DNA of 64,000 nucleotides, from contig CAZESS010000003.1 in the NCBI GenBank assembly GCA_964514975.1, positions 61,334 to 125,333 of the forward strand. The letters run 5' to 3'. Every line of letters starts with the position of its first letter. Positions within the stretch are counted from its first letter, which is position 1. Both the position numbers and the translations under genes were made by a program. Under the pieces are notes generated by a model. The model did not search any database. It saw nothing but the letters and a program-made list of their open reading frames with translations, and was not told where the DNA came from. The DNA is from an uncultured Thermoplasmatales archaeon (GTDB taxonomy: Archaea; Thermoplasmatota; E2; UBA202; DSCA01). Shown here one piece after another: positions 912-60,503 of this stretch.

Positions 912-3900
912 TTACGCCGTTATCGGCGTGGGCTCGGTCCACCCGGGGCTGTAGACCGTCATCGTCGGGTCGCCGAAGATGACCTGCACATGGCTGATGT
1001 AGGTCGACGACCATCCATAGAGCGATGCGGGATCATCAGTCGTGTAATCCCGGTAGATGAGCCATGCATGTTTCGAATATGCCTCGCCGATGCTGGCCCC
1101 GTTGACCATGACCTCATGCAATGCCACGTCGTCCAGGTAGTCCGCAGGTGGACAGCTCCCCGTGCCCGCGTTGCCGTACCACAGCGCGGCCCCATGTTCA
1201 AGGTAGACGTTGGGGCCGAAATGCTGGCCGGTGGTGCAGCTCATCCAGAGCTCGAAAATGCTGTGCAGGTTGTCCAGCTCCCTGTCCACCCATTTGAAAT
1301 GGACGAGGTCGTAGAGCCCGGGCTCCTGCGCGTTGTACCAGGACGTGCCACCCCATCGGGGATACGAGGCGTCGTCGGTGTGCTGGCCGTCGTAGCCGCT
1401 GTAGCCGCGCCAGGAGTCCCACCATTCCCGGTAGGGAGTGCTGACATAGTGCTCCGCGGGCGGGAACTGGTCGGCCACGCACTTGTACTGCGCCGATATG
1501 CCGGAGCCGCCGGTGCCATGGCCGGCATAGTAGTTGACCGATGCGCCCGCATTGTAGCGCTCCAGCAGGTTGTCCCAGATGCAGTGCCCCTCATAGAAGC
1601 GGTCATGGGACGAAAAGCTCTCCTTGGTCGACCGGGACGAGTACACGTACACGGTTTCGCCGTTGTTGAGATTCCACTGGGAATAGCGCGTCCCATCGGG
1701 ATAGTTCATCAGCTGCGACGTGGTGACATCACGCCCGGGGTTGGCGTAGATGATGGCCGGGTACAGGATGTCGCGGCAGATGAGATTGGTGTCCATCGCC
1801 GGCGTGTCAAAGGGTATCTGCCCGGCATAGGACTCGTTGCCTGACAGGGAGCGCATCACCAGATGGCTTATGTCGTTCTCGCGGTCGGCGACGAACATGT
1901 ATGCCTCCTGGCCCTCGCCGTGGAGGCCGTAGCCACCGGTCCATGCCTCGATGGCCTCCTGGATGCCGCCGTACCATCGCTGGTGCATGTCGAAGCCCGG
2001 GTCGGGCACGCTGCCCTCGAAAATGCCCCTGAGCATCTCGCCCAGGTCGAACGGCTCGGCCATCATGTGGAGATATCCCTGCGCTCGCATGCCATGGTAC
2101 CAGCCGCCGGCGTATTGACGGTAGGCGGTGGCCTTGTCGAGGAGGTCATAGGCGCCGGGTATCTCGCCGATGTTCAGCACCGGGCTGCCATGGTAGGCGG
2201 CAATCATCGCCGCCGGCGCAAAGTAGCCGCCGCCGGACGCCAGCGAGGTCACCGTGATATAGTTTTCGGATGCAGCGCTGCTCTTAACAGCGTCGATAAT
2301 CTCCTGCATGGTCGTGTACTCGGTCGCTCCGCTGACGGATGCACTGCTCACTCCGCCGAGGTTGACATAGATGATATCCGAGGTGCCAAGGCTGTCCAGG
2401 GCATTTTGCGTCGCCGCCGGTATCTCATCCGCAGCGACATAGAGCAATGGGGCATGGCTGAGCGATGCGAGGACGGCGCCGTTGGCCGCCGACAGCGCGG
2501 CGTTGCTCCGCTGCTCGCTGTGCTCCCTGAGCGTTGCAGTGATATGGTAGGGGATGCTGTCGCTGGTTTTCTCCTCGCCATAGGGATAATGCGGCGCGAC
2601 GATGACCGCCCACCGACCTTCCATTGGGTGGTGCACCTCGACAGTATGCTCTCTGGCGGGGACGGGCTCCCAGCGTCGCCATTCCTCGAAGCCGATGTCG
2701 GGGTTGTGGTAGCCGTTCCAGGTATGCATGGGCTGGATGTTGTCATGGGTCGGGTCGTTCCAGTGAGGGATCGACGGCCGGCGGATGTTGCCGTGCGGGT
2801 CGACCAGGAACACCTCGAGGGTGCTTGCCTCGCTCGTGGTCACGGTCACCTCGATGCTGCTGCTCGTGTCATCCACCGGTATCTTGTACCGGTCGCCAGA
2901 GTACCTGGTGACCTCGAGCGTCCAGTCGCCGCTGTCGCTGGCGGCGTAGGGGAACCAGAGCCCGGGCGTGGTTATCGGATAATAGATGTTGGTGTTGTCA
3001 CCGGGGACATCCGTCGGATGCGGCCAGTTCTCCTCGGTGCCGACCTCGTAACGGGGGGTGATTATGCCCAGCGCCGGTGATGTCGGCGCTGCGTACACGG
3101 TCATGGCGGCCCATTTGCTGCCGATGAACATGGGCAGGGCCTGCCGCCCGCCGACATCTCTGAGCTGGCTGCTGCCCTTGGCTGCCCTGGTCACCTGTGT
3201 TTCAACGGTGAGCGTCGCATCGGTGTCCAGCACCGATGTTGTCTCATCGTTGAAGCTGCTGCCGTCGACCGCGAGCACCGCCGTGTCGCTGGTATCCCAG
3301 TGGCTGGTTGCGATGTCCGCTGCCGCCTGGACGGGGTCGTCGGGCACGATGTACTCCGCTGCCGCCATACCATGCCTGTCCAGGTAGGTGTTCCAGTCGT
3401 CGAGCAGATACCCCGTGGTGTCATCCACGGTGCCATACCAGTTTATTTGCCGGTCGACGCCCCGGTACACGATGGGGGAAACATGGCGCTGTCCGCCGTC
3501 GAGGTAGTTCGCCGCCGGGATGGCTGCCAGGTAGCCGTATTCGTCGGCGTTGCCATCTGGGTCATCGTTTACGATGAAGGTCCGGGCGACAGGGGTGATG
3601 TCGGGCTGAGGTATCGGGCCCGGTGGCGATGCGACGCTGCCGCCGAGCTCAAGGGTGAACGTGTATGCCCCTGAGCCGTAGAGGTAGTAGTCGTCGGGCC
3701 ACAGCGATGTGTCCCAGCCGGGAAAGATGTCCACCATGAGCGTCCATTTTCCTGTGGTGTCGGCGGGATATTCTAGCTCGTCGTTGCCGTAATAGCTGGC
3801 GTAGTGGACGCGCTCTCCCGCAGGATTGTAGAGATGGATGTCGTAGTCGGTTCGCTTGGGCGGGGTGATGCTCGCGGTGATGCCCTGGCCGGCCGACACG

Positions 3901-4595
3901 TCAAAGCTGTAGCAGTCAATCCAGTCCTGGCTGTCCAGGTAGCCGTCATAGCTGCCGGGGGTGATTGACAGGGCGCTGCCGATGGTGTCGCCGGCGTCGC
4001 CTGCGCTCCCGGCGTCGTTTTGCCCGTTGAGGGTGACGTCGAGCTGGTAGCTGCCGGTGCCGGCTGCGGCGAGGTGCAGGTACCATGTGCCCGTCTCGGA
4101 TGCCTGATATGTGAGCGTGCCTGTGGTACCCGCCGGTGCTGCGGCGACGATGTCGCCGGCTGTGTTTGAGAGCTCCATGGTGATGTCGACGGACGCCTGG
4201 ATGGATATCTGGATGGTCTGGCCGGTGCAGACGGAAAAGCTGTACCAGTCGTCGCTGTCGCCGGCGTCGATGATGCCGGTGGTGTCTCTGCCTGGGCTGC
4301 CGTCGATGGGTTCGCCGGGGTAGATGGGCAGTGCCTGGTAGATGATGTCGCCAGCGTCGACGTTGTAGCCCAGGTCGGTTTCGTCCTGGAGCGCCGTGGT
4401 TGCTTGCGGGCTGTCGATGGTGTCAAGCTGGCGCATCTCGGGTATCTCTTGCGGCGTGTCGCCGGGCTCGGCTGGCGGGGTCTCGCTGTCGGACAGGGTG
4501 GCCGGGCCGCCCGTATCTGATATAGTGGTAATTCCTGTCATGCCTGCGCATAACAATGTTGCAAGTATGCCTATAACTATTAGTTTGGTTTTCAT
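912..4595 (-). CDS. Large secreted protein (1227 aa): signal peptide, two PPC (pre-peptidase C-terminal) domains, and a C-terminal clan-CD (gingipain/C25-like) cysteine-peptidase-like region
   Basis: N-terminal MKTKLIVIGILATLLCAG signal. DxDWYSF PPC motifs occur twice. Candidate His-Gly (NYYAGHGTGG) then Ser-Cys (ELWMSCTTGQ) dyad follows hydrophobic strands, as in clan CD. GGAGG lies 6 nt upstream of the ATG and TTATAAATAA about 35 nt upstream. Confidence 0.55.
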   Translation of the reverse strand: MKTKLIVIGILATLLCAGMTGITTISDTGGPATLSDSETPPAEPGDTPQEIPEMRQLDTIDSPQATTALQDETDLGYNVDAGDIIYQALPIYPGEPIDGSPGRDTTGIIDAGDSDDWYSFSVCTGQTIQISIQASVDITMELSNTAGDIVAAAPAGTTGTLTYQASETGTWYLHLAAAGTGSYQLDVTLNGQNDAGSAGDAGDTIGSALSITPGSYDGYLDSQDWIDCYSFDVSAGQGITASITPPKRTDYDIHLYNPAGERVHYASYYGNDELEYPADTTGKWTLMVDIFPGWDTSLWPDDYYLYGSGAYTFTLELGGSVASPPGPIPQPDITPVARTFIVNDDPDGNADEYGYLAAIPAANYLDGGQRHVSPIVYRGVDRQINWYGTVDDTTGYLLDDWNTYLDRHGMAAAEYIVPDDPVQAAADIATSHWDTSDTAVLAVDGSSFNDETTSVLDTDATLTVETQVTRAAKGSSQLRDVGGRQALPMFIGSKWAAMTVYAAPTSPALGIITPRYEVGTEENWPHPTDVPGDNTNIYYPITTPGLWFPYAASDSGDWTLEVTRYSGDRYKIPVDDTSSSIEVTVTTSEASTLEVFLVDPHGNIRRPSIPHWNDPTHDNIQPMHTWNGYHNPDIGFEEWRRWEPVPAREHTVEVHHPMEGRWAVIVAPHYPYGEEKTSDSIPYHITATLREHSEQRSNAALSAANGAVLASLSHAPLLYVAADEIPAATQNALDSLGTSDIIYVNLGGVSSASVSGATEYTTMQEIIDAVKSSAASENYITVTSLASGGGYFAPAAMIAAYHGSPVLNIGEIPGAYDLLDKATAYRQYAGGWYHGMRAQGYLHMMAEPFDLGEMLRGIFEGSVPDPGFDMHQRWYGGIQEAIEAWTGGYGLHGEGQEAYMFVADRENDISHLVMRSLSGNESYAGQIPFDTPAMDTNLICRDILYPAIIYANPGRDVTTSQLMNYPDGTRYSQWNLNNGETVYVYSSRSTKESFSSHDRFYEGHCIWDNLLERYNAGASVNYYAGHGTGGSGISAQYKCVADQFPPAEHYVSTPYREWWDSWRGYSGYDGQHTDDASYPRWGGTSWYNAQEPGLYDLVHFKWVDRELDNLHSIFELWMSCTTGQHFGPNVYLEHGAALWYGNAGTGSCPPADYLDDVALHEVMVNGASIGEAYSKHAWLIYRDYTTDDPASLYGWSSTYISHVQVIFGDPTMTVYSPGWTEPTPITA

Positions 4596-15075: not shown

Positions 15076-15985
15076 GAGGACAGAGGCAGTCATCAAGATA
15101 GACGGCCTGACCAAGCACTACGGCGACGTGGTCGGCGTCCAGGACCTGAGCCTTGACGTGCACCGGGGCGAGATCATGGGCTTCCTTGGCCCCAATGGCG
15201 CCGGGAAGACCACGACGCTCAGGAGCTGCTTGGCCCTGCTGTCAAAGACCGCCGGCACAATAACGATATTCGGCATGGACTCGCACCGCGATGCGGTGGC
15301 CATTCGCCGGCGGACGGGCTATCTCCCCGGAGACTTCGGGCTCATCCCCGCGGTGAGCACGAGGCGCTATCTTCAATATCTTTTGTCGCTCAGCGACTGC
15401 TGCTCCGACGAGAAGCTCCGCTCGCTGGCTGACCGGCTGGAGCTCAACCTGGACAGGAAGACCAACGAGCTGTCGAAGGGCAACCGGCAGAAGGTTGGCA
15501 TCATCCAGGCGCTGATGGCCGGGCAGGACCTGATCATCATGGACGAGCCCACATCGGGGCTCGACCCGCTCATGCAGCAGGAGGTCTACCGCATCATGCG
15601 GGAGGAACAGCAGGACGGCAAGACCATTTTCATGTCGTCGCACATCCTGGCGGAGGCCGAGCAGGTCTGCGACCGGGTGGCCATCATACGGAACGGCAGG
15701 CTCGAGGTGGTCGAGGAGGTGCAGGCGCTGCAGGAAAAAACGGGGAAAGTCCTGGAGGTCGAGTTCCGTGACCCCGTGAATCTCGACGAGTTCGACATGG
15801 ACGGGGTGACCGATCTGCGCAGGGAGGACGGAAAAATCATGCTGACCATCCATGAAAACCTCGACCGGGTCGTCAAGACGGTGTCCGGCCACAAAATCCT
15901 GAACATGCAGCTTTACACCTACAGCCTCGAGCAGCTCTTCCTGAAATACTACGGCGAGGAAGACAGGACGGAGGGTGAACCATGA
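15068..15985 (+). CDS. ABC-2 type transporter ATP-binding protein
   Basis: Walker A GPNGAGKTT, LSKGNRQKV signature, IIMDEP Walker B. Overlaps nikR 3' end (cotranscribed). Confidence 0.9.
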   Translation: MNERTEAVIKIDGLTKHYGDVVGVQDLSLDVHRGEIMGFLGPNGAGKTTTLRSCLALLSKTAGTITIFGMDSHRDAVAIRRRTGYLPGDFGLIPAVSTRRYLQYLLSLSDCCSDEKLRSLADRLELNLDRKTNELSKGNRQKVGIIQALMAGQDLIIMDEPTSGLDPLMQQEVYRIMREEQQDGKTIFMSSHILAEAEQVCDRVAIIRNGRLEVVEEVQALQEKTGKVLEVEFRDPVNLDEFDMDGVTDLRREDGKIMLTIHENLDRVVKTVSGHKILNMQLYTYSLEQLFLKYYGEEDRTEGEP

Positions 15986-17100
15986 AGGGGCGCATGGCGG
16001 CCATGGAGCTCCGGTCGGGCTGGAAGGGGCTGGCCATGTTCGGCGTGCTCGTGCTCCTGGTGTCGGCAGGCATGCCCCAGATACTGCCGGCCTACCGCGA
16101 GTCGTTCACCGAGGACCTGGAGGGGGCAAACCGCGTCCACATCGAGGTGCCGGAGCAGCAGGACGCCATGATAAACCTGTCCTGGGAACCGGTCGAAAAC
16201 GCAACTGGCTACGTGGTGCTCGAGGACAACTCGTCGGCGTTTCTGACCTCCCGGGTACAGTACTTCGGCAACATGACGAACATTTCATTTCCCATGAACT
16301 TCGAAGAAAAACGGTACTATGCGGTCATGGCCATCCACACCAACGTGAGCAACGCCTCATGGATGGACCTGCTGTCGGCGCAGCGGCAGCTCGTCGGCAT
16401 CGCCGCGACCGGCACGCCGGACAACCCGTTCGAGGAGCTCATGGACAACCCCGCATACCAGGGATTTTCCCGCGGCCGGGCAATCAATCCCCTCGAGGTG
16501 AAAGGTTTCATCATCCTCGAGTTTTTCAGCTGGTGGTGGATGCTCGCCGGGCTGTTCATAGCCTATCTCTCCGTATCGGTCATCGCCGGCGACTTCGAAA
16601 ACCGGCGCATGGACATCTTTCTCTCAACGCCCATCTCCCGCCGCCGGTACATCCTGGAAAAATTCCTGTCCCTGGCGCTCATCGCCCTGTATGTCATCGG
16701 GGTTGCCACCGCCGGGCTGATAGCCGGGGTTGCCAGCATCGGTGCCCTTGACAAGCTGCCGCCACATGCCGCGTTTCTGTCGCTGTTCGGCTGTTTCCCG
16801 TTTCTGCTGGTCATCGCCACCGTCGGCATCCTGAGCGCCGTCACATTCCAGAAGGTCAAGGTGGGCATGGGCGTGACCTTCGCCGCGGTGTTCGCCCAGT
16901 TTTTCCTGTACACCTTCGGGAATTACACCGATGCACTTGCATGGATGAAGACCCTCAGTATTTTCAACTACTGGGACTATGCGGCGCCGTTGCTCGACGA
17001 CGTGTTCAAGCTCGGTGACTTCACCATCCTGGCCGTTGTCGCCGGCGTCATCCTCGCTGCGGGGCTCTGGCTCTTCGACCAAAAGGACGTGCCCGCCTAG
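15982..17100 (+). CDS. ABC-2 family permease with large extracytoplasmic loop after TM1
   Basis: ATGA overlap with the ATPase. N-terminal TM, ~140-aa loop, then five TM segments. Confidence 0.8.
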   Translation: MKGRMAAMELRSGWKGLAMFGVLVLLVSAGMPQILPAYRESFTEDLEGANRVHIEVPEQQDAMINLSWEPVENATGYVVLEDNSSAFLTSRVQYFGNMTNISFPMNFEEKRYYAVMAIHTNVSNASWMDLLSAQRQLVGIAATGTPDNPFEELMDNPAYQGFSRGRAINPLEVKGFIILEFFSWWWMLAGLFIAYLSVSVIAGDFENRRMDIFLSTPISRRRYILEKFLSLALIALYVIGVATAGLIAGVASIGALDKLPPHAAFLSLFGCFPFLLVIATVGILSAVTFQKVKVGMGVTFAAVFAQFFLYTFGNYTDALAWMKTLSIFNYWDYAAPLLDDVFKLGDFTILAVVAGVILAAGLWLFDQKDVPA

Positions 17101-43085: not shown

Positions 43086-43514
43086 TCAGCGCACCGGTTT
43101 CTCCACTTTGCCCCGCACCAGTTCCTTGAGGGACACGTTGTTGACCTTGATAACCTTGAAACGGACGCCGGGGATGTCACCATATGATTTCCCCATCGCA
43201 CCGCCGATACCCTCGATGAGCACCTCGTCGTGCTCGTCGATAAACGTGATCGCCCGGTCACCGGGCACGAACGCCGTCACCATCCGGCCGTTCTTGATGA
43301 GCTGCACCCTGACACATTTCCGGATAGCCGAGTTCGGCTGCTTCGCCTCGATGCCCACCTTCTCGATGACGATGCCGCGTCCCTGCGGAGCGCCCTCAAG
43401 CGGGTCGGTCCGCTTTTTCAGGTTCAGCGCGCGGCGTTTGTACTGCATATCCGACCAGCGGAATTTCTGGCGGTCTCGCTTGAGCTTCCGAGCTGCGTTC
43501 ATTCCTTTGCCCAT
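43086..43514 (-). CDS. rps12: 30S ribosomal protein S12
   Basis: [20 protein letters not shown]... [20 protein letters not shown] lies 5 nt upstream of the ATG. Confidence 0.95.
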
Positions 43515-43647
43515 GATTTCACCAATTTGTTCGCTAATATACTCCTCATATTTAATCATAACGGGTATGATCACGGAGCAGCGCAGGTAGCAATGCACAA
43601 CCCACATTTATAAATTGCTGTCCCCATTTGGTCGACGAGGCAGGACA

Positions 43648-44295
43648 ATGAAACAGTTCACCCTGATGGACGGAGCGATACAGGCCACCGCACATCTTGC
43701 CACGCCCGACAGATGGGTCATCTGCTCCCACGGCCTCTATTCCAGCATGGCCAGCGACAAATATGTCCAGCTGGCCGGGATGGCAAACGAGCGCGGCATA
43801 TCATTGCTCCGGTTCAACCACCGGGGCTGCGGCAATAGCGACGGCGACTTTGCCGAATCAACGTTAACCAGGCGGGTCGAGGACATGCGAGCCGCCATCG
43901 AATGGGTACGGGAGACACATGGCGGGGGCATCGCGCTGTTCGGCTCCTCATTCGGCGGCATGGTCTCCATCCTCGCGGCAGATAGCGACATCCGGACGCT
44001 GGCGCTCATGTCGACGCCGTATAAAATCGAGGGGGACCTGGGGCTTGACGAGGCATTCGTGGAGGACCTGGAACGCTACAATCTGCTCGAGGGCATTGCG
44101 ACGGCGCCGCCGGTGCTCATCATGCACGGCCGCACCGATGGGCTGGTGCCCGTCGAGCACGCCAGAGCGCTGCATGACCATGCACCGGCGGAGAATAAAC
44201 TCGTGCTGTTCGATGCTGACCATCGTTTTTCGGATGGCGAGGTGCGCACGCGGGCGCTCGAGATGGCGCTCGACTGGATTACCGCATATTTTTAG
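43648..44295 (+). CDS. Alpha/beta-hydrolase (dienelactone hydrolase/peptidase S9-like)
   Basis: GSSFGG nucleophile motif and C-terminal HGRTDGLVP and H residues. Confidence 0.7.
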   Translation: MKQFTLMDGAIQATAHLATPDRWVICSHGLYSSMASDKYVQLAGMANERGISLLRFNHRGCGNSDGDFAESTLTRRVEDMRAAIEWVRETHGGGIALFGSSFGGMVSILAADSDIRTLALMSTPYKIEGDLGLDEAFVEDLERYNLLEGIATAPPVLIMHGRTDGLVPVEHARALHDHAPAENKLVLFDADHRFSDGEVRTRALEMALDWITAYF

Positions 44296-44576
44296 GGAAG
44301 ACGGCGTTTTCTGAGGTCGGTGACCGTCCGGCGGTCGAGCATGACGATGGCGTAGTCGATGAGCGTTTTGAGCGATGACGCAAACAGGCCGACGATGAGA
44401 CCGAAGATTTGGCCGCCCATGAGCTGCCATATGATTTCTCCGATGACAGCGGGGAGTATCCAGACGGGGAGCATTATTTTCCAGCGTGGATGCAGATGGA
44501 TTTTCATGCTGGTCCATCTGATGTCAGCCCGCCATACGTTGTATTTTCTGCGCATCGTCCTCCATCGGTTTTTCAT
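44292..44576 (-). CDS. Small membrane protein (about 94 aa)
   Basis: Two TM helices. TTTATATATTT TATA about 25 nt upstream of the ATG at 44576. Confidence 0.45.
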   Translation of the reverse strand: MKNRWRTMRRKYNVWRADIRWTSMKIHLHPRWKIMLPVWILPAVIGEIIWQLMGGQIFGLIVGLFASSLKTLIDYAIVMLDRRTVTDLRKRRLP

Positions 44577-44702
44577 GGACAATGATGTTAAATATATAAA
44601 AAAATTCCGGTTTGTTTGTGCCGCATACCGTGCAGACATCGGGCAAACGGTTGCTATCAAAACGCCGGGTAATTATATGTCCCGATGGCGTGACCAAAAA
44701 AG

Positions 44703-44773
44703 AGGGCGGGGCGGGAGTTGAACCCGCGTATGCGGATCTGCAGTCCGCCACCTCGCCTCTAGGTTACCCGCCC
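44703..44773 (-). tRNA. tRNA-Cys (GCA), CCA not encoded
   Basis: Cloverleaf: GGGCGGG acceptor, ACCT/AGGT D-stem, GCGGA-CTGCAGA-TCCGC anticodon arm (anticodon GCA), GCGGG-TTCAACT-CCCGC T-arm, discriminator T. Followed by CTTTTTTGG. Confidence 0.8.
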
Positions 44774-44896
44774 AGATGGGTCATGCAGGATAACATGGCG
44801 CACCAGTTTTTAACGTTTTGCCGTCCGATGAGCGGCAACCTTTTTTAGCTCCGGGGACATGCCATGTGAATGCCATCGACCGCGAGCGATGCCGAC

Positions 44897-45778
44897 ATGT
44901 CGTCAGTGCCAGCCATCCTGCTGGTATCGCTGCCGCTGATCGGATGGTCGCTTGCATTTCCATTGATAAAAATCGCGCTCGACGAGCTCTCCTGGGTCAA
45001 CCTGACCATCCTCCGCTTCCTGGTGGCGTGCAGCACGCTGCTGGTGCTGCTGGGCCTGCAGCGGCACCGGTTTCCGCTGCCTGGCCGGCAGGAGCTGCCA
45101 GCGCTCTTTTTACTGGGGTTTTTTGGCATCATCGTCTACCATCTCGGCCTCAACTATGGCGAGCAGTATGTGTCGCCGGGGGCGGCCAGCCTCCTCGTGG
45201 CGACCATTCCCGTGTTCGTGGTCATGCTCGCCGTCGTGTTCCTGGACGAGGGCATCACAGGCTGGAAGCTGCTGGGCATCACGCTCTCGCTGGCGGGTGT
45301 CGTCGTGCTCTCGCTGTGGGGCACCGGCACCGCCACGATAGAAATCGACTATGTGGGAGGCGCAATCGCCGTGCTGATTGCCGCCGTGATGGGCGCCTTG
45401 TATACCGTGGCTGGCAAAAAAATGCTGGGGCGGTATTCCCCGCTGTCGCTGACCGTCTACGCCATCCTGCTGGGCAGCCTCGGGTTGCTTCCCGCCGTCA
45501 ATGGCTCGTTGTTCAGGCAACTCGGGCACCTGTCGCTGCAGGCCACCGCCGCGGTGCTCTTCCTCGGGCTGTTTTCCACCATTGTGAGCTACGCGCTCTG
45601 GTACATGGCGCTGCAGCGGCAGTCCGCCTCATCATTAAGCGTCTACCTCTATGTCGTCCCGGTGGTCGCCACCGCCCTGAGCTGGATGCTGTTCGATGAC
45701 GCCATAACGCCGATGTATCTCCTGGGCGGCGTGCTGGTCATCGGGGGCGTCGCCATCGTCAACCGGCAGCGCCGTTGA
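44897..45778 (+). CDS. EamA/DMT-family transporter
   Basis: Ten TM segments with two EamA repeats. Confidence 0.8.
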   Translation: MSSVPAILLVSLPLIGWSLAFPLIKIALDELSWVNLTILRFLVACSTLLVLLGLQRHRFPLPGRQELPALFLLGFFGIIVYHLGLNYGEQYVSPGAASLLVATIPVFVVMLAVVFLDEGITGWKLLGITLSLAGVVVLSLWGTGTATIEIDYVGGAIAVLIAAVMGALYTVAGKKMLGRYSPLSLTVYAILLGSLGLLPAVNGSLFRQLGHLSLQATAAVLFLGLFSTIVSYALWYMALQRQSASSLSVYLYVVPVVATALSWMLFDDAITPMYLLGGVLVIGGVAIVNRQRR

Positions 45779-45781
45779 GAA

Positions 45782-45793
45782 CGTTTATAAAAC
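45782..45793 (+). promoter_or_regulatory. TATA box (CGTTTATAAAAC) for the rSAM-MTase-DUF2064-GT2 operon
   Basis: About 25 nt upstream of the ATG at 45815 (leaderless geometry). Confidence 0.4.
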
Positions 45794-45814
45794 CCGGTGT
45801 GTTGAACGGGCATC

Positions 45815-46864
45815 ATGTGCCCATGTGAGACGGCGGCGCGGGCCGGCCTGCACCCAGATGGTAGGGAGGAAAAAGCATATTTCGATGCCGGACGGGTCTA
45901 CGCTGTCCAGATAGAGCTCAACCTGGCCTGTCCGCAGGGCTGCCTGTACTGCTACGCCTCCGATGCCAATCCACCAGAGGAGGGGATGCCCCAGGAGGAC
46001 GTCGTCGCCGTCTTGGACGCAGCCGTCGACATGGACATTCGGGCGGTAGACTGGCTCGGCGGCGACCCGTTGGTGCGGGACGACTGGTACGAGCTCATGC
46101 GGTATGCGCAGCAGCAGGGACTGGTCAACAACATCTGGACGAGCGGGATGCCGCTGCAGGATGAATTGGTGGCCCGACGGGCGGTCGAGGTCTCCCGCGG
46201 CGGCTTCATCTCGGTGCACCTCGACAGCCTCAACGAAGCGATATATGGACGGCTGCACACGGGTAATCCTGCGGGCAAGATACACGCCATCCTGGCCGGG
46301 GTCGACAACGTGCAGGCAGCCGGCAAAAACCCGGAGCACATGGTAAACTGTATCACCTTTACCAGGGCGGTGGCAGATGATGCAGCCCGCACCATCCGGT
46401 TTTTCCAGGAGGAAAAGGGCATGCGGACCTGTCTCACACAGATGTGCCCGACGGGGCTGGCCGAGGAACGGGACGACCTGGTGCCATCCATGGAGGAGAT
46501 AGAAAACGCGTGCACCGTCCGCGACAGGGTCAACTATCCCGGCTCGAAGCTGTCGATATGCTCCATGGACACCAACAGGTACTACTGCGGCGGCATCATC
46601 TGCGTAACGGTCGACGGCGACGTGACCCCCTGCTCCGTCATCCGGCAGGGCGTCGGCAACATACACGATGCAGCGCTGCGGGATATCGTCGAGCGGCACC
46701 GTGACACGTTGCTGTTCACCGACCTCCGGAACGACAGCGGGCTCCCCAAGGACTGCCGGGATTGCGAGCACAACGTCGTCTGCTGGGGCTGCCGCGCCGC
46801 CGCCTACTACGCGACCGGCGACGTCTGCGGGCCTGACCCCAACTGCTACCGCAGAAAGAGATAA
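45815..46864 (+). CDS. Radical SAM enzyme with Cys-rich (SPASM-like) C-terminal domain
   Basis: CPQGCLYC CX3CX2C motif. C-terminal cysteines CSMDTNRYYCGG...CSVI...CRDCEHNVVCWGC...CGPDPNC. Confidence 0.85.
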   Translation: MCPCETAARAGLHPDGREEKAYFDAGRVYAVQIELNLACPQGCLYCYASDANPPEEGMPQEDVVAVLDAAVDMDIRAVDWLGGDPLVRDDWYELMRYAQQQGLVNNIWTSGMPLQDELVARRAVEVSRGGFISVHLDSLNEAIYGRLHTGNPAGKIHAILAGVDNVQAAGKNPEHMVNCITFTRAVADDAARTIRFFQEEKGMRTCLTQMCPTGLAEERDDLVPSMEEIENACTVRDRVNYPGSKLSICSMDTNRYYCGGIICVTVDGDVTPCSVIRQGVGNIHDAALRDIVERHRDTLLFTDLRNDSGLPKDCRDCEHNVVCWGCRAAAYYATGDVCGPDPNCYRRKR

Positions 46865-46895
46865 GAAGCACAGCCCGATATATCCGGGTGGTTGC

Positions 46896-47708
46896 ATGAA
46901 CGACGGCCAAAAGGAAAAACGGCTTGATTACACCATCGGAGACGTGATCGACATCTACGCCGGCCCGGTCGGCGTGCTGTGGCAGATGCTGATGGGCGAC
47001 CAGATACATGTCGGCGGCGAAGCGGAAACCCTGGCGCTGGCGGAGCGAGCCCGCATAACCGGCGACAGCAGGGTGCTCGACGTGTGCAGCGCGCTCGGTG
47101 CCCCGGCCCGGCAGCTCGCCACCCGGTATGGATGCACCGTGGTCGGGCTCGACGCAACGGAAAAAATGGTTGAGCTGGCTGAACGGGACACCATGACGGC
47201 AGGGCTTTCAGGGCAGGTGTCGTTTCGGCTGGGGAACGCGCTCGACATGCCCTTCAAGCGGGAGAGCTTCACGGTGGTCTGGGGTCAGGATGCCTGGTGC
47301 TATGTGACCGACAAAAAACGGCTGGTCGAGGAAGCATATCGGGTGCTTGTGCCCGGGGGCACCATCGCGTTTACCGACTGGCTGCAGACCGGCGATATGA
47401 CGGCGGAGGAATGGGAGCTGCTCAACGGGTTCATGGCCTTTCCCTACATGGAGACCCCTGACGGCTACGTGGAGCTGCTCCGCCGGGCGGGCTTCGAAAA
47501 CGTCGAGGTGGAGGACACCGGCGAGCTGTTCGCCCGGCACTGCCATCGCTATCTGGACATGCTCCGCACCGAGCTGCGGGATGACATCATCGACGGCTAC
47601 GGCCCTGAGATGTACGAGGCAGCGGAGGACGGGCTCCAGCGATGGACGGCGGCGGCCGACGCGGGCACGGTGGGCCGCGGCATGTTCCTGGGACGCAAGC
47701 CGAGATGA
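46896..47708 (+). CDS. Class I SAM-dependent methyltransferase
   Basis: VLDVCSALGAPA (motif I) and acidic motif II/III pattern. Start at the internal ATG at 46896, after the rSAM stop. Confidence 0.8.
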   Translation: MNDGQKEKRLDYTIGDVIDIYAGPVGVLWQMLMGDQIHVGGEAETLALAERARITGDSRVLDVCSALGAPARQLATRYGCTVVGLDATEKMVELAERDTMTAGLSGQVSFRLGNALDMPFKRESFTVVWGQDAWCYVTDKKRLVEEAYRVLVPGGTIAFTDWLQTGDMTAEEWELLNGFMAFPYMETPDGYVELLRRAGFENVEVEDTGELFARHCHRYLDMLRTELRDDIIDGYGPEMYEAAEDGLQRWTAAADAGTVGRGMFLGRKPR

Positions 47709-47735
47709 CGGGGGCAAGCCTTTTTGTAGCCCGGC

Positions 47736-48434
47736 ATGTTTAAAACCCGGATGGACGGCAGGGGCACGCAGAGCTGCATTCTTCTCTATATCAAATATCC
47801 AGAGCCGGGACGGGTGAAAACCCGGCTGAGCGAGGCGCTGGACGGCGGCGTCGCAGCGGAGCTCTACCGGCATTTCGTCATAGATGTGCTCGCAATGGTA
47901 AAGGACACCGGACACGACGTCATCATATGTTACGCTCCCGCCGGGCGGGAGGAGGACTTCCGGAGATGGCTCGGCCCCCGCCATCGGTATCATCGGCAGC
48001 GGGGCGACACCCTGGGTGAAAAACTGAAGCATGGCTTCGCCGACATCTATGCGGCGGGCTACCGGAGCGCCGTTGCCATTGGCAGCGACAGCCCGGACCT
48101 GCCATCCCGGTATATCGAGATGGCGTTCACCCGGCTTGGGGAACATGACGTGGTCATCGGACCGGCGGTCGACGGCGGCTACTATCTGATAGGCTTCGCC
48201 AGGGATACCTTTGTGCCGGAGGCGTTCGACGGCATCGAATGGAGCACGTCCACCGTGCTGCATGAAACGCTGCGGAATCTCCGGCGGCAGCCCGGAGATG
48301 TTGATGTTCACCTGCTGCCGGCGTGGAAGGATGTGGACACCCTCGACGACCTATGGGCGCTCATATATCGCACCCGGAACAGCGCGTTTGCGTCATCGGC
48401 CACGATGCGCTACATCACCGATCAGATACCATGA
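47736..48434 (+). CDS. DUF2064-family (CofC/MobA-like GT-A fold) putative nucleotidyl/glycosyl transferase
   Basis: N-terminal ILLYIKYPEPGRVKTRL...AELYRHFVIDVL pattern of the DUF2064 (TIGR04282-like) family. Confidence 0.65.
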   Translation: MFKTRMDGRGTQSCILLYIKYPEPGRVKTRLSEALDGGVAAELYRHFVIDVLAMVKDTGHDVIICYAPAGREEDFRRWLGPRHRYHRQRGDTLGEKLKHGFADIYAAGYRSAVAIGSDSPDLPSRYIEMAFTRLGEHDVVIGPAVDGGYYLIGFARDTFVPEAFDGIEWSTSTVLHETLRNLRRQPGDVDVHLLPAWKDVDTLDDLWALIYRTRNSAFASSATMRYITDQIP

Positions 48435-49132
48435 CAGATGAGACATGCATGCATCCAGAGATATCCGTGGTGGTACCGTTCCACGCGAGCGTCGACGGCA
48501 TTGCGGCAATACGGGCCATGATAGATACGGCCAGCGTGCCGACGGAAACCATCTACGTGGTCGACAGCGGGCTGCGGCACGTGATGCCGCGGCCGCGCGA
48601 CCGTGAAACGGTCATCTGGATAGAAAACCGGGGCAGGGGATACAACCTCCGGGAGGGCGCAAAACATGCCCGGGGGGACATCATTGTGTTCCTGCACGCG
48701 GACACCGTGCTTCCATCCGGGTGGGACACGGCGATATGCGATGCCATGGAAGACAGCGATGTGGCCGGCGGCGGGTTTTCCCTTCGATTCGACCATGACA
48801 GCCCGTTTCTCCGGCTGGTGGTGCTGGCGAGCGATCTGCTCATCTATCTCATGGGCCGTTTTTCTGGGGATAGAGCCATGTTCGTCCGCGCTCCCCTGAT
48901 ACAGCGGCATCCCAACGTGCTCGACGTCCCCATCATGGAGGACACCGAGCTCTCCATTTTCATGCAACAGCAGGGGAAAACGGTGCTCCTGCAGAAAACG
49001 GCTGTTACGAGCGCGGCGACCTTCGTCCGGCACGGGTTCCTCCGCAACACGCTACGAATCATCATCTGTTCGCTGTGGTACGCGGTCGGAATGAATCTGC
49101 AGGACATCTACGATTTCTATTACCGCAGGTGA
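48431..49132 (+). CDS. GT2-family glycosyltransferase
   Basis: ISVVVPFH...VVDSG...FLHADTVLP (GT-A, DXD-like) pattern. ATGA overlap with the upstream gene. Confidence 0.8.
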   Translation: MTDETCMHPEISVVVPFHASVDGIAAIRAMIDTASVPTETIYVVDSGLRHVMPRPRDRETVIWIENRGRGYNLREGAKHARGDIIVFLHADTVLPSGWDTAICDAMEDSDVAGGGFSLRFDHDSPFLRLVVLASDLLIYLMGRFSGDRAMFVRAPLIQRHPNVLDVPIMEDTELSIFMQQQGKTVLLQKTAVTSAATFVRHGFLRNTLRIIICSLWYAVGMNLQDIYDFYYRR

Positions 49133-49146
49133 ACGCCGCGGCGGGG

Positions 49147-50130
49147 CTAGTCGGCGTGCGCTATCGCCTCGGGCGGGAATGGCTCCTGGGTCTGCCGCTG
49201 GTCATCCCATCCCGTCAGGGTCTCGTAGTGAACGTTCCAGTTTGTCCCCTGCATCGTCAGGGTGAACGTGACGTTGGAGACCTCGGAGGTAACGGTGACG
49301 GTGTCGCCGGGCTGATATTCGTCGGTGATGTCTCCCTCGACGGTGAGCGCGCTGCGGGTGTACGAGGAAAACTGGAGCACGGTGATGTCCCGACTGCTGT
49401 TGTATGACAGGTTTTGGAGCTGGTCTCTGATGGTCACGGTGTCGCCCTCGTCATATGAGGCCAGGTAGACCATCAGGGTGTCGGTGTCGTTATCCCTGGT
49501 CTGCCGGTAGTCGCTCTGGAACTCGTAGAATGACAGCGCTCCGTCGTCCTGGTCATCTCCCGTGTCATCTGTGTCGTCCCCGGTGTCGTTTCCGTCGCCG
49601 TCGGTGTCATCATCGATGTCGGCGGTTTCCGCGTGCGCTATCGCTTCGGGCGGGAAGGGCGTCTGGGTGTTGTTCTGGGTGTCCCATCCATTCTTGAAGG
49701 TTTCGTAGTGGATGGTCCAGTTCTGGCCCTGCATCGGGTAGGTGAACGTGGTGTTGATGATCGGGGAGGTCAGGGTGACGTTGTCGCCGGCCTGGAAATC
49801 ATCGGTGATGTTGCCCTGGACGGCCTGGTACTGCCGGGGATACGAGGAAAACTGGATGAGCGTCATGCTCTCGTTGCCCTGGTCCCTGTAGGTCAGGTTT
49901 TGGAGCTTGTCCCGGATGACCACGGTGTCACCCTCGTCGAGCGACCGCAGATACATGACCATGGTCTGCGTCTGGTTGTCCCTGGTGCTGTTGTAGTCCT
50001 GGTTGAACTCCAAAAATGTCATCGTCTCCGTCATGCCGCCGGTGTCTCCGTTGTCGTCCTCCAGGCACCCGGCGGTCGCCACGACCGCCAGGACGCAGAC
50101 GAGCAGCGATACAACAATAGCTCGTTTCAT
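49147..50130 (-). CDS. Sequon-dense surface lipoprotein with two internal ~150-aa tandem repeats joined by an acidic D/T/G linker
   Basis: Signal plus lipobox-like ATAGC. Repeats each end in EPFPPEAIAHA(E/D). About 14 N-x-S/T sequons in 327 aa. Confidence 0.7.
   Translation of the reverse strand: MKRAIVVSLLVCVLAVVATAGCLEDDNGDTGGMTETMTFLEFNQDYNSTRDNQTQTMVMYLRSLDEGDTVVIRDKLQNLTYRDQGNESMTLIQFSSYPRQYQAVQGNITDDFQAGDNVTLTSPIINTTFTYPMQGQNWTIHYETFKNGWDTQNNTQTPFPPEAIAHAETADIDDDTDGDGNDTGDDTDDTGDDQDDGALSFYEFQSDYRQTRDNDTDTLMVYLASYDEGDTVTIRDQLQNLSYNSSRDITVLQFSSYTRSALTVEGDITDEYQPGDTVTVTSEVSNVTFTLTMQGTNWNVHYETLTGWDDQRQTQEPFPPEAIAHAD
49153..50010. repeat. Intragenic tandem duplication (~480 bp x2, ~70% nt identity) within the lipoprotein gene
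   Basis: Both copies begin GCGTGCGCTATCGC(C/T)TCGGGCGGGAA and share long colinear blocks such as TACGAGGAAAACTGGA and CAGGTTTTGGAGCT. Confidence 0.6.
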
Positions 50131-50224
50131 AGCGCGTGTCCAAGGGTAGCATGGTATTTATACCTTGGGATGGAGCGAAATCGTTATAGGTGGCAATGGC
50201 GTTCAGGCAGCACGGAGCAACACC

Positions 50225-58112: not shown

Positions 58113-60503
58113 CTAGCCCTGCCCTGTCCACACGCCCGGCGCGGTGACGTAGACGAACACGCCCATGCCCCTGCTGACGGCAAACCCGGGTGGCGGCGTC
58201 ACACCGACCGTGTAGGACTCAAACGTGCTGCTGGTGGCGTTCCAGTAGGCGGCGATGCTGCAATAGGGCACCGACGGGGCGAGCGAGCTCGCATTGGTTG
58301 CATCGGCATCATACCATCCAATGGTGTTCCATCCCGTAAACAGGTCAACCGCAACGCTTGACAGTGGCGCGCCGGTCACCGAAAACGTATCGGACGTGTT
58401 CACATATACGAAGTAGCCGACGCCGTCCTCGATAGCGAAGCCCGAGCCCGGTGTTATGCCAACCACATAGGACTGGAACATCCCAGCGGAGGCGTTCCAG
58501 TAGGCCACAATGTCGCAGCCCGGTATGTCGGCGCCGAGCGAGCTCGCGTTGTAATCATTGGCGACGGGCACCGTCATCAGGTTCCAGCCCGCCGCGAGGC
58601 TGATGGTGCATCCTCCTCCGGTGATGGTGACGGCAATCGTTTGCATGTCGTTCCAGGGTCGCTGGTCGCCCGTCAGAGCCGTTGAGACGGAAACATAATA
58701 CCTGGAGGTGTTGGCAAAGAGATATGTCCAGTGAACCGGCATGGTGGCGTTGCTTGCCAGCGAGGAAACGGTCGCCTGGTTGGCATACACGCACTGGGTG
58801 ACCTCGTCGTCGCGGGCGAGAAGAGATACATCATCGATGTACCAGCCCGGGTCACCGTGGACGCCCGAATCGGTGGCGAAATGAAACCGGAGCTGCACCA
58901 TCTGGCCTATGAATGGGGAGAGATCAAAGGTTTTTTTCTCCCAGCCGTTGGACGTGCCGGTAAACGCGAACTGTCCTTCTATGCTGTTGCCATAGCCGGT
59001 GTTCAACGTCCGGTCATACTGTCCCGCATCATTGCCCGGGTCGAGCTGCGTCCATCCGCTGCCGTTGTTGACCTCGACGACCCCGCCGTCATACCCGTTT
59101 TCGATGTCATACCAGGTGTAAAACGAGATCGTGGCAGCGTCACATGCGGGAATCAACATGGAGGTAAGCGAGAGATATTCATCTGTATTGTCCTGGCCAT
59201 AGGAGCCATCAAGGTTTGTCCCCCGGCAGCGGCTGCCCGAATGCGCCGCGGGCGGGCCAACGCTCGGGATGCCCCATTCCCAGAGAAGATGGTCGCCCGT
59301 TGCGGTCCAGTTGCCGTCATCTGATTCCATGTCATCGCTGTAGACGGGGGATGTAACCGCGGGGGAGAGCACCTCGTCTACGCTGCATGTAACGGTGACG
59401 TTGCTCTGGTTGACGGTGCCATGGTTTGCCAGGGTGGCATTGATGGAAATCACTCCGGCAGGCAAGGACTGGTTGTCCTGCGGATGGTCTATGGAGACCA
59501 CGCCGACGTCATGCTCCCGCTGTACGTCGAGGGCGGCGAGCTCGACAAGGGTGCCCGTCATGAAACGGGTGACGACGGCGTCATAGGACAGGTTCATGTT
59601 CGCCATGGTGTCCTGCGGGGAGTGATAGTAATTATTGAACTCGTATTCGTGATAGAAAATGGCGTCATATCCATTCGACCAGAAGGAATAATGGTCGCTG
59701 TTGGCGCTTCCGGAAAGACGGTGCACGGTCAGGCCGACCTCGGGATATGTGCTGCTGACGTTGACGGCGAGGTCGGTCATCCATTGCGATGCGGTGTTCT
59801 CGTATATCTTGACGTTCGTGCCTCCCTGCGGCGTCTCGGTGTACCCGATCATGTCGGCGTTGAGCGCACCGGCGATGTTGTCTCCCTGCGCCGCGGCATA
59901 GCTGGCGTATCTGCTACTGCCCAGGAGGCCCTGCTCCTCCCCGGAGAAAGCAACGAATCTGACCGTGTGCTCGAACTGGTAGGTGCTCATTGTTTCCGCT
60001 GCGGCGAGAACCGCAGCCGTGCCGGAGCCGTCGTCATCCGCCCCCGGGGAGCCGCTGACGCTGTCGTAGTGAGCGCAGATGACATATACCCGGTCGCTCG
60101 AGGTGTTGGTGCCCTGGAGCTCGGCGACAATGTTCCGGTCGCTGTATCCGCCGCTGGCCCAGTTGTGGTAGGAGACGGATAGGTTCATGGCCTGGAACTG
60201 GGTGTAGATGTAGGTGCCGGCATTGTGGCAGGCAGTGGAGCCGGTAACCCTCGGCCCGAAGCCCTCAAGGGTCTGTATGTACCCGGTGACCATGCTCTCG
60301 TTGATTGTCTGCAACATGGCGGCAACAACGGGGTCGTACTGCACCCGGCCGTCCCGCGCCCCGGCCGGAGCCGCATCGAGATATATTTTCTCTCCCGCGT
60401 CGTATGCGCCCGGGCCGGCGACGACCGTGACGGTAAATATCAGGGAAAAAATGAGGCAGGCGATGACGCCCTGCTGAAAAATTCTTTTCATGTCCATCGT
60501 CAT
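58113..60503 (-). CDS. Secreted M28-family peptidase with ~450-aa C-terminal beta-rich extension
   Basis: Signal peptide. HYDSV...DDDGSG...SGEEQGLLG M28 motifs (paralog of the 7935 gene). Long Cys-containing C-terminal domains with many N-x-S/T sequons. Confidence 0.8.
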   Translation of the reverse strand: MTMDMKRIFQQGVIACLIFSLIFTVTVVAGPGAYDAGEKIYLDAAPAGARDGRVQYDPVVAAMLQTINESMVTGYIQTLEGFGPRVTGSTACHNAGTYIYTQFQAMNLSVSYHNWASGGYSDRNIVAELQGTNTSSDRVYVICAHYDSVSGSPGADDDGSGTAAVLAAAETMSTYQFEHTVRFVAFSGEEQGLLGSSRYASYAAAQGDNIAGALNADMIGYTETPQGGTNVKIYENTASQWMTDLAVNVSSTYPEVGLTVHRLSGSANSDHYSFWSNGYDAIFYHEYEFNNYYHSPQDTMANMNLSYDAVVTRFMTGTLVELAALDVQREHDVGVVSIDHPQDNQSLPAGVISINATLANHGTVNQSNVTVTCSVDEVLSPAVTSPVYSDDMESDDGNWTATGDHLLWEWGIPSVGPPAAHSGSRCRGTNLDGSYGQDNTDEYLSLTSMLIPACDAATISFYTWYDIENGYDGGVVEVNNGSGWTQLDPGNDAGQYDRTLNTGYGNSIEGQFAFTGTSNGWEKKTFDLSPFIGQMVQLRFHFATDSGVHGDPGWYIDDVSLLARDDEVTQCVYANQATVSSLASNATMPVHWTYLFANTSRYYVSVSTALTGDQRPWNDMQTIAVTITGGGCTISLAAGWNLMTVPVANDYNASSLGADIPGCDIVAYWNASAGMFQSYVVGITPGSGFAIEDGVGYFVYVNTSDTFSVTGAPLSSVAVDLFTGWNTIGWYDADATNASSLAPSVPYCSIAAYWNATSSTFESYTVGVTPPPGFAVSRGMGVFVYVTAPGVWTGQG

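Follow-up and report, generated by a model that had tools for sequence, protein, structure and literature searches.

A gene on the minus strand of a 64-kb stretch of DNA from an uncultured Thermoplasmatales archaeon (64,000 nucleotides (nt); hereafter the window) encodes a protein of 327 amino acids (aa) that we read as a lipid-anchored, acidic surface-coat protein, built from two tandem OB barrels and glycosylated by the archaeal oligosaccharyltransferase AglB. We assign this reading a probability of roughly 0.6. The object is of an ordinary kind, namely an internally duplicated archaeal protein predicted to be both a surface lipoprotein and a glycoprotein, and its domain family was matched by no library that we searched. 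The initial annotation, which was made from the nucleotide sequence alone, had proposed a glycan-display scaffold that may be the substrate of an adjacent glycosyltransferase cassette. A putative glycan-display scaffold is compatible with the data, while the link to the cassette did not hold up. The features discussed below are collected in Table 1.

Table 1. Positions in the window of the tandem OB-fold lipoprotein gene, its parts and the neighbouring cassette.
Feature	Position	Strand	Remarks
Complete gene, tandem OB-fold lipobox protein	49147..50130	(-)	From the list of open reading frames; 327 aa; 14 full-length homologues
Signal peptide, aa 1-22	50065..50130	(-)	MKR n-region, hydrophobic h-region, lipobox-like T-A-G-C, Cys22
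Acidic spacer after Cys, aa 23-33	50032..50064	(-)	LEDDNGDTGGM; predicted disordered, pLDDT <50 for residues 1-31
Repeat 1, predicted OB-fold domain, aa 34-168	49627..50031	(-)	9 sequons
D/T/G-rich acidic linker, aa 169-196	49543..49626	(-)	1 sequon; predicted disordered, pLDDT <50 for residues 169-195
Repeat 2, predicted OB-fold domain, aa 197-326	49153..49542	(-)	4 sequons; AlphaFold2 pLDDT ~87-96; HMM domain 2
Palindromic TATA-like element	50153..50164	(.)	ggtatttatacc; possible shared archaeal promoter; read by eye from the sequence
Five-gene cassette, convergent with the lipoprotein gene	44870..49132	(+)	Context; no evidence of a functional link
EamA transporter	44870-45778	(+)	
Radical SAM/SPASM enzyme	45815-46864	(+)	Best NCBIfam match AhbD, 99 bits (cut-off 500)
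Class I SAM methyltransferase	46668-47708	(+)	
DUF2064, TIGR04282	47736-48434	(+)	186 bits (cut-off 134)
GT2 resembling TIGR04283	48323-49132	(+)	131 bits, below the cut-off of 182
pLDDT, predicted local distance difference test; HMM, hidden Markov model; SAM, S-adenosylmethionine.

A constrained coding gene with an internal duplication

The open reading frame (ORF) is a real gene, as it has homologues and shows a ratio of nonsynonymous to synonymous substitution rates (dN/dS) of 0.24 (dN 0.028, dS 0.115) relative to a 94%-identical orthologue at locus L020. It is a constrained coding gene under purifying selection. Its dN/dS is similar to the values for neighbouring genes (0.02-0.38), so that over the gene as a whole positive selection is not indicated at short range; at longer range synonymous sites are saturated. 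The GC fraction at third codon positions (GC3) is 0.85.

A direct-repeat search recovered direct DNA repeats within the gene at a spacing of 477-480 nt, the best segments being 76-79% identical. Codon-aware alignment of aa 34-168 with aa 197-326 covered 130 codons at 58.5% aa identity and 69.5% nt identity, and the local nt score of one repeat against the other was 153, compared with 11.3 ± 1.5 for shuffled sequence. The two ~480-bp copies at about 70% nt identity that the initial annotation had described were therefore reproduced on alignment. The acidic D/T/G linker that it had placed between them was also recovered (ETADIDDDTDGDGNDTGDDTDDTGDDQDDG). It had further described a common C-terminal motif, EPFPPEAIAHA, and here a small correction is needed: PFPPEAIAHA closes both copies, whereas the full motif is exact in copy 2 only, as copy 1 has T in place of the leading E. 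The linker is variable in length among homologues and is missing from one of them (P0004). Since the acidic spacer that follows the lipobox cysteine aligns with the end of the inter-repeat linker, the duplicated unit comprised spacer plus domain.

A predicted lipoprotein-type signal peptide

The N-terminal sequence of the protein, MKRAIVVSLLVCVLAVVATAGC, has the build of a Sec-type signal peptide. A positively charged n-region (MKR) is followed by the hydrophobic h-region AIVVSLLVCVLAVVA, an arrangement that is kept in homologues. The terminal T-A-G-C fits the lipobox consensus [L/V/I]-3 [A/S/T/V/I]-2 [G/A/S]-1 C+1 in part, at positions -2, -1 and +1 but not at -3. Gly at -1 (G21) and Cys at +1 (C22) are invariant both in the clade with the tandem form and in 31 diverse family members, and more distant members of the family carry L, I or F at -3 (LSGC, FSGC, ISGC, LAGC). 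With a lipobox-like end and a family-invariant cysteine in the signal peptide, the lipoprotein that had been called from the sequence is supported as a prediction.

In the archaeal lipoprotein pathway, as studied in the model Haloferax volcanii, Sec and Tat substrates are lipidated by AliA and AliB, and AliA has been reported across Euryarchaeota (PMC12462473). The window protein shares with archaeal lipobox lipoproteins the tripartite signal peptide, the x-A-G-C end, the invariant Cys and a predicted membrane anchor on the outer face. It differs from them in its mature part, which belongs to an OB-fold family that no library searched here recognised.

Direction-specific excess of N-glycosylation sequons

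The protein contains 14 N-X-S/T sequons (X not P), 11 of them N-X-T and 3 N-X-S, so that the count of about 14 given at the outset was exact. Composition-preserving shuffles led us to expect about 3.7-3.8 ± 1.7, and none of 5000 shuffles reached 14. The reversed motif S/T-X-N is not enriched (2 vs 3.8 expected), and the excess is therefore direction-specific and not a by-product of N/T richness. Each homologue has 10-16 sequons per protein, which is ~3 times the expectation. Family-wide, 208 domains contain 783 sequons vs 342 expected (2.29-fold), with the reversed motif at 1.19-fold. The positions are partly conserved: recurrent sequon columns in the family profile correspond to N78, N126, N214, N244 and N286 of the window protein and to a site next to N86. 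Domain 1 offers one potential glycan per ~15 residues.

At 4.3 sequons per 100 aa (z = 6.3), the density is the highest among the 61 ORFs of the window and far above that of its other secreted proteins. The only other ORFs with a clear sequon excess encode an M28 peptidase (58113-60503, minus strand; 18 sequons, z 3.8) and a protein at 15982-17100 (plus strand; 8 sequons, z 6.3), both with signal-peptide-like N-termini, and cytoplasmic proteins carry 0-3 sequons. Sequon usage is sharply unequal among the predicted exported proteins of the window, and a 1227-aa PPC-domain protein (912-4595, minus strand) contains 1 sequon vs 6.2 expected.

Like AglB glycoproteins, the protein has N-X-S/T sites, presumably accessible, on a predicted exported chain. 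Such a sequon pattern would be expected of an organism that N-glycosylates its exported proteins through a general AglB pathway, in which case many of the sites would probably be occupied. No STT3/AglB was found among the large ORFs of the 64-kb window. Heavily N-glycosylated surface proteins of archaea, such as S-layer glycoproteins and archaellins, are modified by the AglB pathway (PMC6098224, PMC8241124, PMC2948927). The window protein is like them in its predicted extracytoplasmic location, its many sequons, its acidic character and its fast divergence between relatives. It is, however, far smaller (~32 kDa in mature form) and has a predicted lipid anchor in place of lattice formation or of anchoring by a C-terminal transmembrane segment or archaeosortase.

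An undescribed domain family with a predicted OB fold

Searches of Pfam and NCBIfam with the 327-aa protein returned only sub-threshold noise (SPP1_Dit, DUF3592, MCM_OB, Ig_like_ice), as did a Pfam scan of 31 family members, and a sequence profile search of the PDB gave only nanobody noise at E>0.3. A hidden Markov model (HMM) of the domain detected no paralogue elsewhere in the window. In contrast to these libraries, protein sequence collections contained many relatives. A word-indexed search identified 14 full-length homologues, entitled, where a title is given, 'hypothetical protein [Thermoplasmatota archaeon]', and an exhaustive profile search identified 375 representative clusters at E<=1e-3, 170 of them at E<=1e-10. 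The domain represents an undescribed OB-fold family without a Pfam model. All named sources are metagenome-assembled genomes (MAGs) titled Thermoplasmatota, Thermoplasmatales or Thermoplasmata.

In the typical member, of 150-180 aa, a signal peptide with SGC, AGC or CGC at its end is followed by a short N/D/T/G spacer and a single domain. Repeat copy number, which had been singled out for comparison among relatives, varies from one to three near-complete domains in the 185 profile-matching proteins that were collected: 154 have one, 21 have two and 4 have three. In a few members a zinc-ribbon and transmembrane anchor replaces the lipobox, and some are fused to NosD/beta-helix, PKD or Big_9/cadherin extracellular modules; both features support an extracytoplasmic location. 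The acidic motifs LDEGDT, GD and E-x5-WD are conserved in the family, and a group of conserved acidic residues (D65, D68, D74, E143 and D150) could conceivably make up a metal site.

AlphaFold2, supplied with the family alignment, predicted two confident all-beta domains (aa 34-167 and 197-327, block pLDDT ~80-96) that are separated and preceded by disordered segments, while the arrangement of the domains relative to each other is not fixed in the model (predicted template modelling score (pTM) 0.47). Repeat 1 modelled alone reached a pLDDT of 96.3 and a pTM of 0.85. In the predicted structure each domain is a five-stranded closed beta-barrel with OB topology.

The top Foldseek matches were tandem-OB proteins, including HIN-200, RPA and POT1, which likewise have two consecutive OB barrels per chain. 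Taken at face value, these matches (RPA, SSB, HIN, POT1) would suggest a nucleic-acid-binding protein for the binding or uptake of extracellular DNA. Those proteins are, however, cytoplasmic or nuclear, basic and DNA-binding, whereas the barrels here are predicted to be joined by a 28-residue disordered acidic linker in no fixed arrangement. The protein has 58 acidic vs 15 basic residues (net charge ~-43), which argues that it is not a nucleic-acid binder, and the secretion signal and the sequons speak for a glycoprotein located outside the cytoplasm. We therefore consider nucleic-acid binding extremely improbable.

A second structural comparison concerns the bacterial BOF periplasmic proteins (YgiW, YdeI, SipA; PDB 3f1z). 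There is no sequence similarity to them: Pfam BOF (PF04076) gave no match to the 327-aa protein at E<=10, and the 25 families (of 47) that 31 family members matched most often at E<=1 did not include it. The protein also differs from them in being archaeal, in an extra N-terminal strand and helix, and in being strongly acidic, sequon-rich and tandemly duplicated. The comparison nevertheless frames the main alternative to a coat function, in which the OB barrels bind an extracellular ligand (a cation, small molecule, glycan or peptide) and the protein serves as a surface receptor or buffer in the manner of YgiW and SipA; a small-molecule ligand could possibly be a product exported by the EamA transporter encoded nearby. 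SipA binds antimicrobial peptides in the periplasm (PMC6370654), and both the conserved acidic motifs and the fusions of some members to NosD, PKD or cadherin-like surface modules would suit such a role. No binding site could be identified in the barrels, however, and the conserved GD motifs are probably the structural turns typical of OB/S1 barrels. Moreover, the nine sequons on the 135-aa domain 1 would, if occupied, mask much of its surface, and the family does not co-occur with the cassette outside this clade. On balance a specific ligand-binding role appears rather unlikely.

Homogenisation of the repeats and rapid divergence

The single domain is the ancestral and commonest form of the family, and the two- and three-domain forms arose from it by lineage-specific duplication. 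In a tree of all repeats, the first repeats (R1s) of the homologues cluster together, that of P0004 less tightly, and the second repeats (R2s) do so except for an aberrant R2 in P0014. The window R1 groups with the R2s. Its identity is 58% with the R2 of other members and only 43% with their R1, and the identity of R1 to R2 within one protein is 58% in the window compared with 26-48% in homologues. This resemblance indicates that R1 was homogenised towards R2 in the lineage of the window, which includes the 94%-identical P0016, and it accounts for the identical C-terminal motif of both repeats. Either gene conversion or re-duplication would account for the homogenisation. In P0013 the three repeats group with one another, and the expansion in this protein was therefore independent.

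Paralogous single-domain genes also occur head-to-tail at two loci (L024, 5001-5549 and 5577-6020; L025, 1051-1599 and 1636-2178), which suggests that fusion could follow on gene duplication. Such pairs may represent the state that preceded the fused two-domain gene.

Relative to the next clade, the lipoprotein gene is the most diverged gene of its neighbourhood. Its product shows an aa identity of 41-48%, compared with 58-99% for the flanking genes (DUF2064, 58-62%; GT2, 71-76%; ArgS, 80-85%; AsnS, 92-94%; EF-2, 96-99%). Consistent with this, nt identity in a 10-kb alignment is lowest at the lipoprotein gene.

A proposed role at the cell surface

Taken together, these features suggest the following course. 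The lipoprotein would be exported by the Sec pathway and anchored on the outer side of the membrane by Cys22, which, by analogy with Haloferax, may receive a thioether-linked archaeol from an AliA-type enzyme. Its signal peptide would be removed, and AglB, the general oligosaccharyltransferase of archaea, would N-glycosylate many of the 14 sequons. The result would be a protein with two acidic OB barrels, covered with glycans and held at the cell surface on flexible acidic tethers. Most plausibly, it would act there as a glycan-bearing, negatively charged component of the coat, that is, as a shield or spacer, because domain 1 has a high density of glycan sites, the net charge is strongly negative and the gene is the most divergent of its neighbourhood.

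Several points weigh against this surface-coat reading. We infer export, lipidation, glycosylation and the coat function, and a coat or shielding role in particular is argued from composition. Neither AglB nor AliA was found in the window, where no search was aimed at AliA, and we assume that the genome encodes both. At lipobox position -3 the protein has Thr (Ala in some relatives) instead of the canonical L/V/I, which also sets it apart from archaeal lipobox lipoproteins in general. Finally, the restriction of the family to Thermoplasmatota is provisional, as it comes from few named MAGs and most members lack a taxonomic label.

Sediments and anoxic habitats harbour abundant uncultured Thermoplasmatota, whose cell envelopes are, to our knowledge, essentially uncharacterised. 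A compact family of ~375 clusters with a predicted lipid anchor and many sequons but no Pfam model could enter the databases as a new domain of unknown function, and in Thermoplasmatota the domain could serve to mark predicted surface glycoproteins. The gene is in addition a clean natural example of an intragenic duplication followed, as it seems, by gene conversion. No new mechanism is revealed. A bolder proposal would be that a whole class of unrecognised, Thermoplasmatota-specific, hyper-glycosylated surface proteins is built from the OB-fold lipobox domain and forms a major part of the coat where a conventional S-layer may be lacking, with duplications, gene conversion and fast divergence reflecting an arms race at the surface, for example as virus receptor or decoy. 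We regard this as speculative and unlikely.

The neighbouring cassette and other genes of the locus

Adjacent to the lipoprotein gene lies the five-gene cassette that had been put forward as the source of the glycans. If the protein were a dedicated display scaffold whose sequons are glycosylated by this cassette, the immediate adjacency of the GT2 gene, with a gap of 14 nt, its conservation in every genome with the two-domain form and the genuine sequon enrichment would all be explained. The two genes are on opposite strands, however, and since the cassette is convergent with the lipoprotein gene, they are on separate transcripts. The cassette comprises TIGR04282- and TIGR04283-type enzymes, a methyltransferase, a radical SAM/SPASM enzyme and an EamA transporter, with neither an oligosaccharyltransferase nor a flippase among them, whereas archaeal N-glycans are transferred by AglB at the outer face of the membrane (PMC6098224, PMC8241124). 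The combination that marks an agl cluster, namely an oligosaccharyltransferase together with dolichol-phosphate glycosyltransferases and linkage across genomes, was not found in the cassette. The make-up of the cassette suggests a small-molecule pathway of the cytoplasm and not a protein-glycosylation cluster of the agl/AglB kind.

The conserved gene order is no stronger an argument. The order argS, lipoprotein gene, GT2-DUF2064-methyltransferase-radical SAM-EamA recurs in all two-domain loci examined, but the genomes concerned are closely related and also keep argS, asnS, S7 and EF-2 in synteny. Since this conservation extends in equal measure to housekeeping neighbours, the synteny of cassette and lipoprotein gene carries no functional information. 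The equally sequon-rich single-domain homologues lie in unrelated contexts, next to gyrB, rpl1, methylmalonyl-CoA/acyl-CoA genes, eIF-1A, toxin-antitoxin genes or a DUF3592 protein, and at the loci examined the cassette was never beside them. The proposed substrate relationship is thus rejected as unsupported, though not strictly disproved, and we hold it to be very unlikely.

NCBIfam labels the two transferase families 'arsenosugar biosynthesis'. An assignment of the cassette as an arsenosugar (ArsS) cluster was rejected, since its radical SAM enzyme is of the SPASM type and its match to AhbD is far below the cut-off (Table 1).

Peptidase genes occur in the wider neighbourhood. A C25 (gingipain-like) peptidase gene is found by argS in some close relatives (L004, 1-1807; L020, 5889-8201). 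In L020 it sits between asnS and argS, and it is absent from the corresponding position in the window (between 51919 and 51937) and from L021; it is a presence/absence polymorphism. OB folds such as TIMP inhibit proteases, and the lipoprotein could on this ground be imagined as a partner or inhibitor of the secreted C25 and M28 peptidases encoded nearby in these archaea. The C25 gene is two genes away in L004 and L020 and the M28 gene lies within the window, but the variable presence of the former and the lack of any conserved linkage across the family make this highly improbable.

On its other side the lipoprotein gene is divergent from argS, and the 94-nt gap between the two holds the palindromic TATA-like element ggtatttatacc. 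The centre of this element precedes the ATG of the lipoprotein gene by ~28 nt and that of argS by ~66 nt. An archaeal TATA element is usually found at about -26, which argues for a promoter role. By this analogy, the element is a possible promoter shared with argS, and a leaderless lipoprotein mRNA would be implied.

Two further observations concern the surroundings of the family. Upstream of the cassette, a stretch of ~1.25 kb (43500-44750) is 100% nt-identical to another Thermoplasmatales MAG (L011), while its flanks are 75-93% identical. It contains an alpha/beta-hydrolase gene (43615-44295), a small ORF (44292-44660) and a tRNA gene (44703-44773), and stems either from a recent exchange between lineages, by recombination or transfer, or from chimeric co-assembly. 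Lastly, on a 34-kb metagenomic contig, a heliorhodopsin gene (L022, 8413-9171) and a C1 peptidase gene are located a few kb from a single-domain member.
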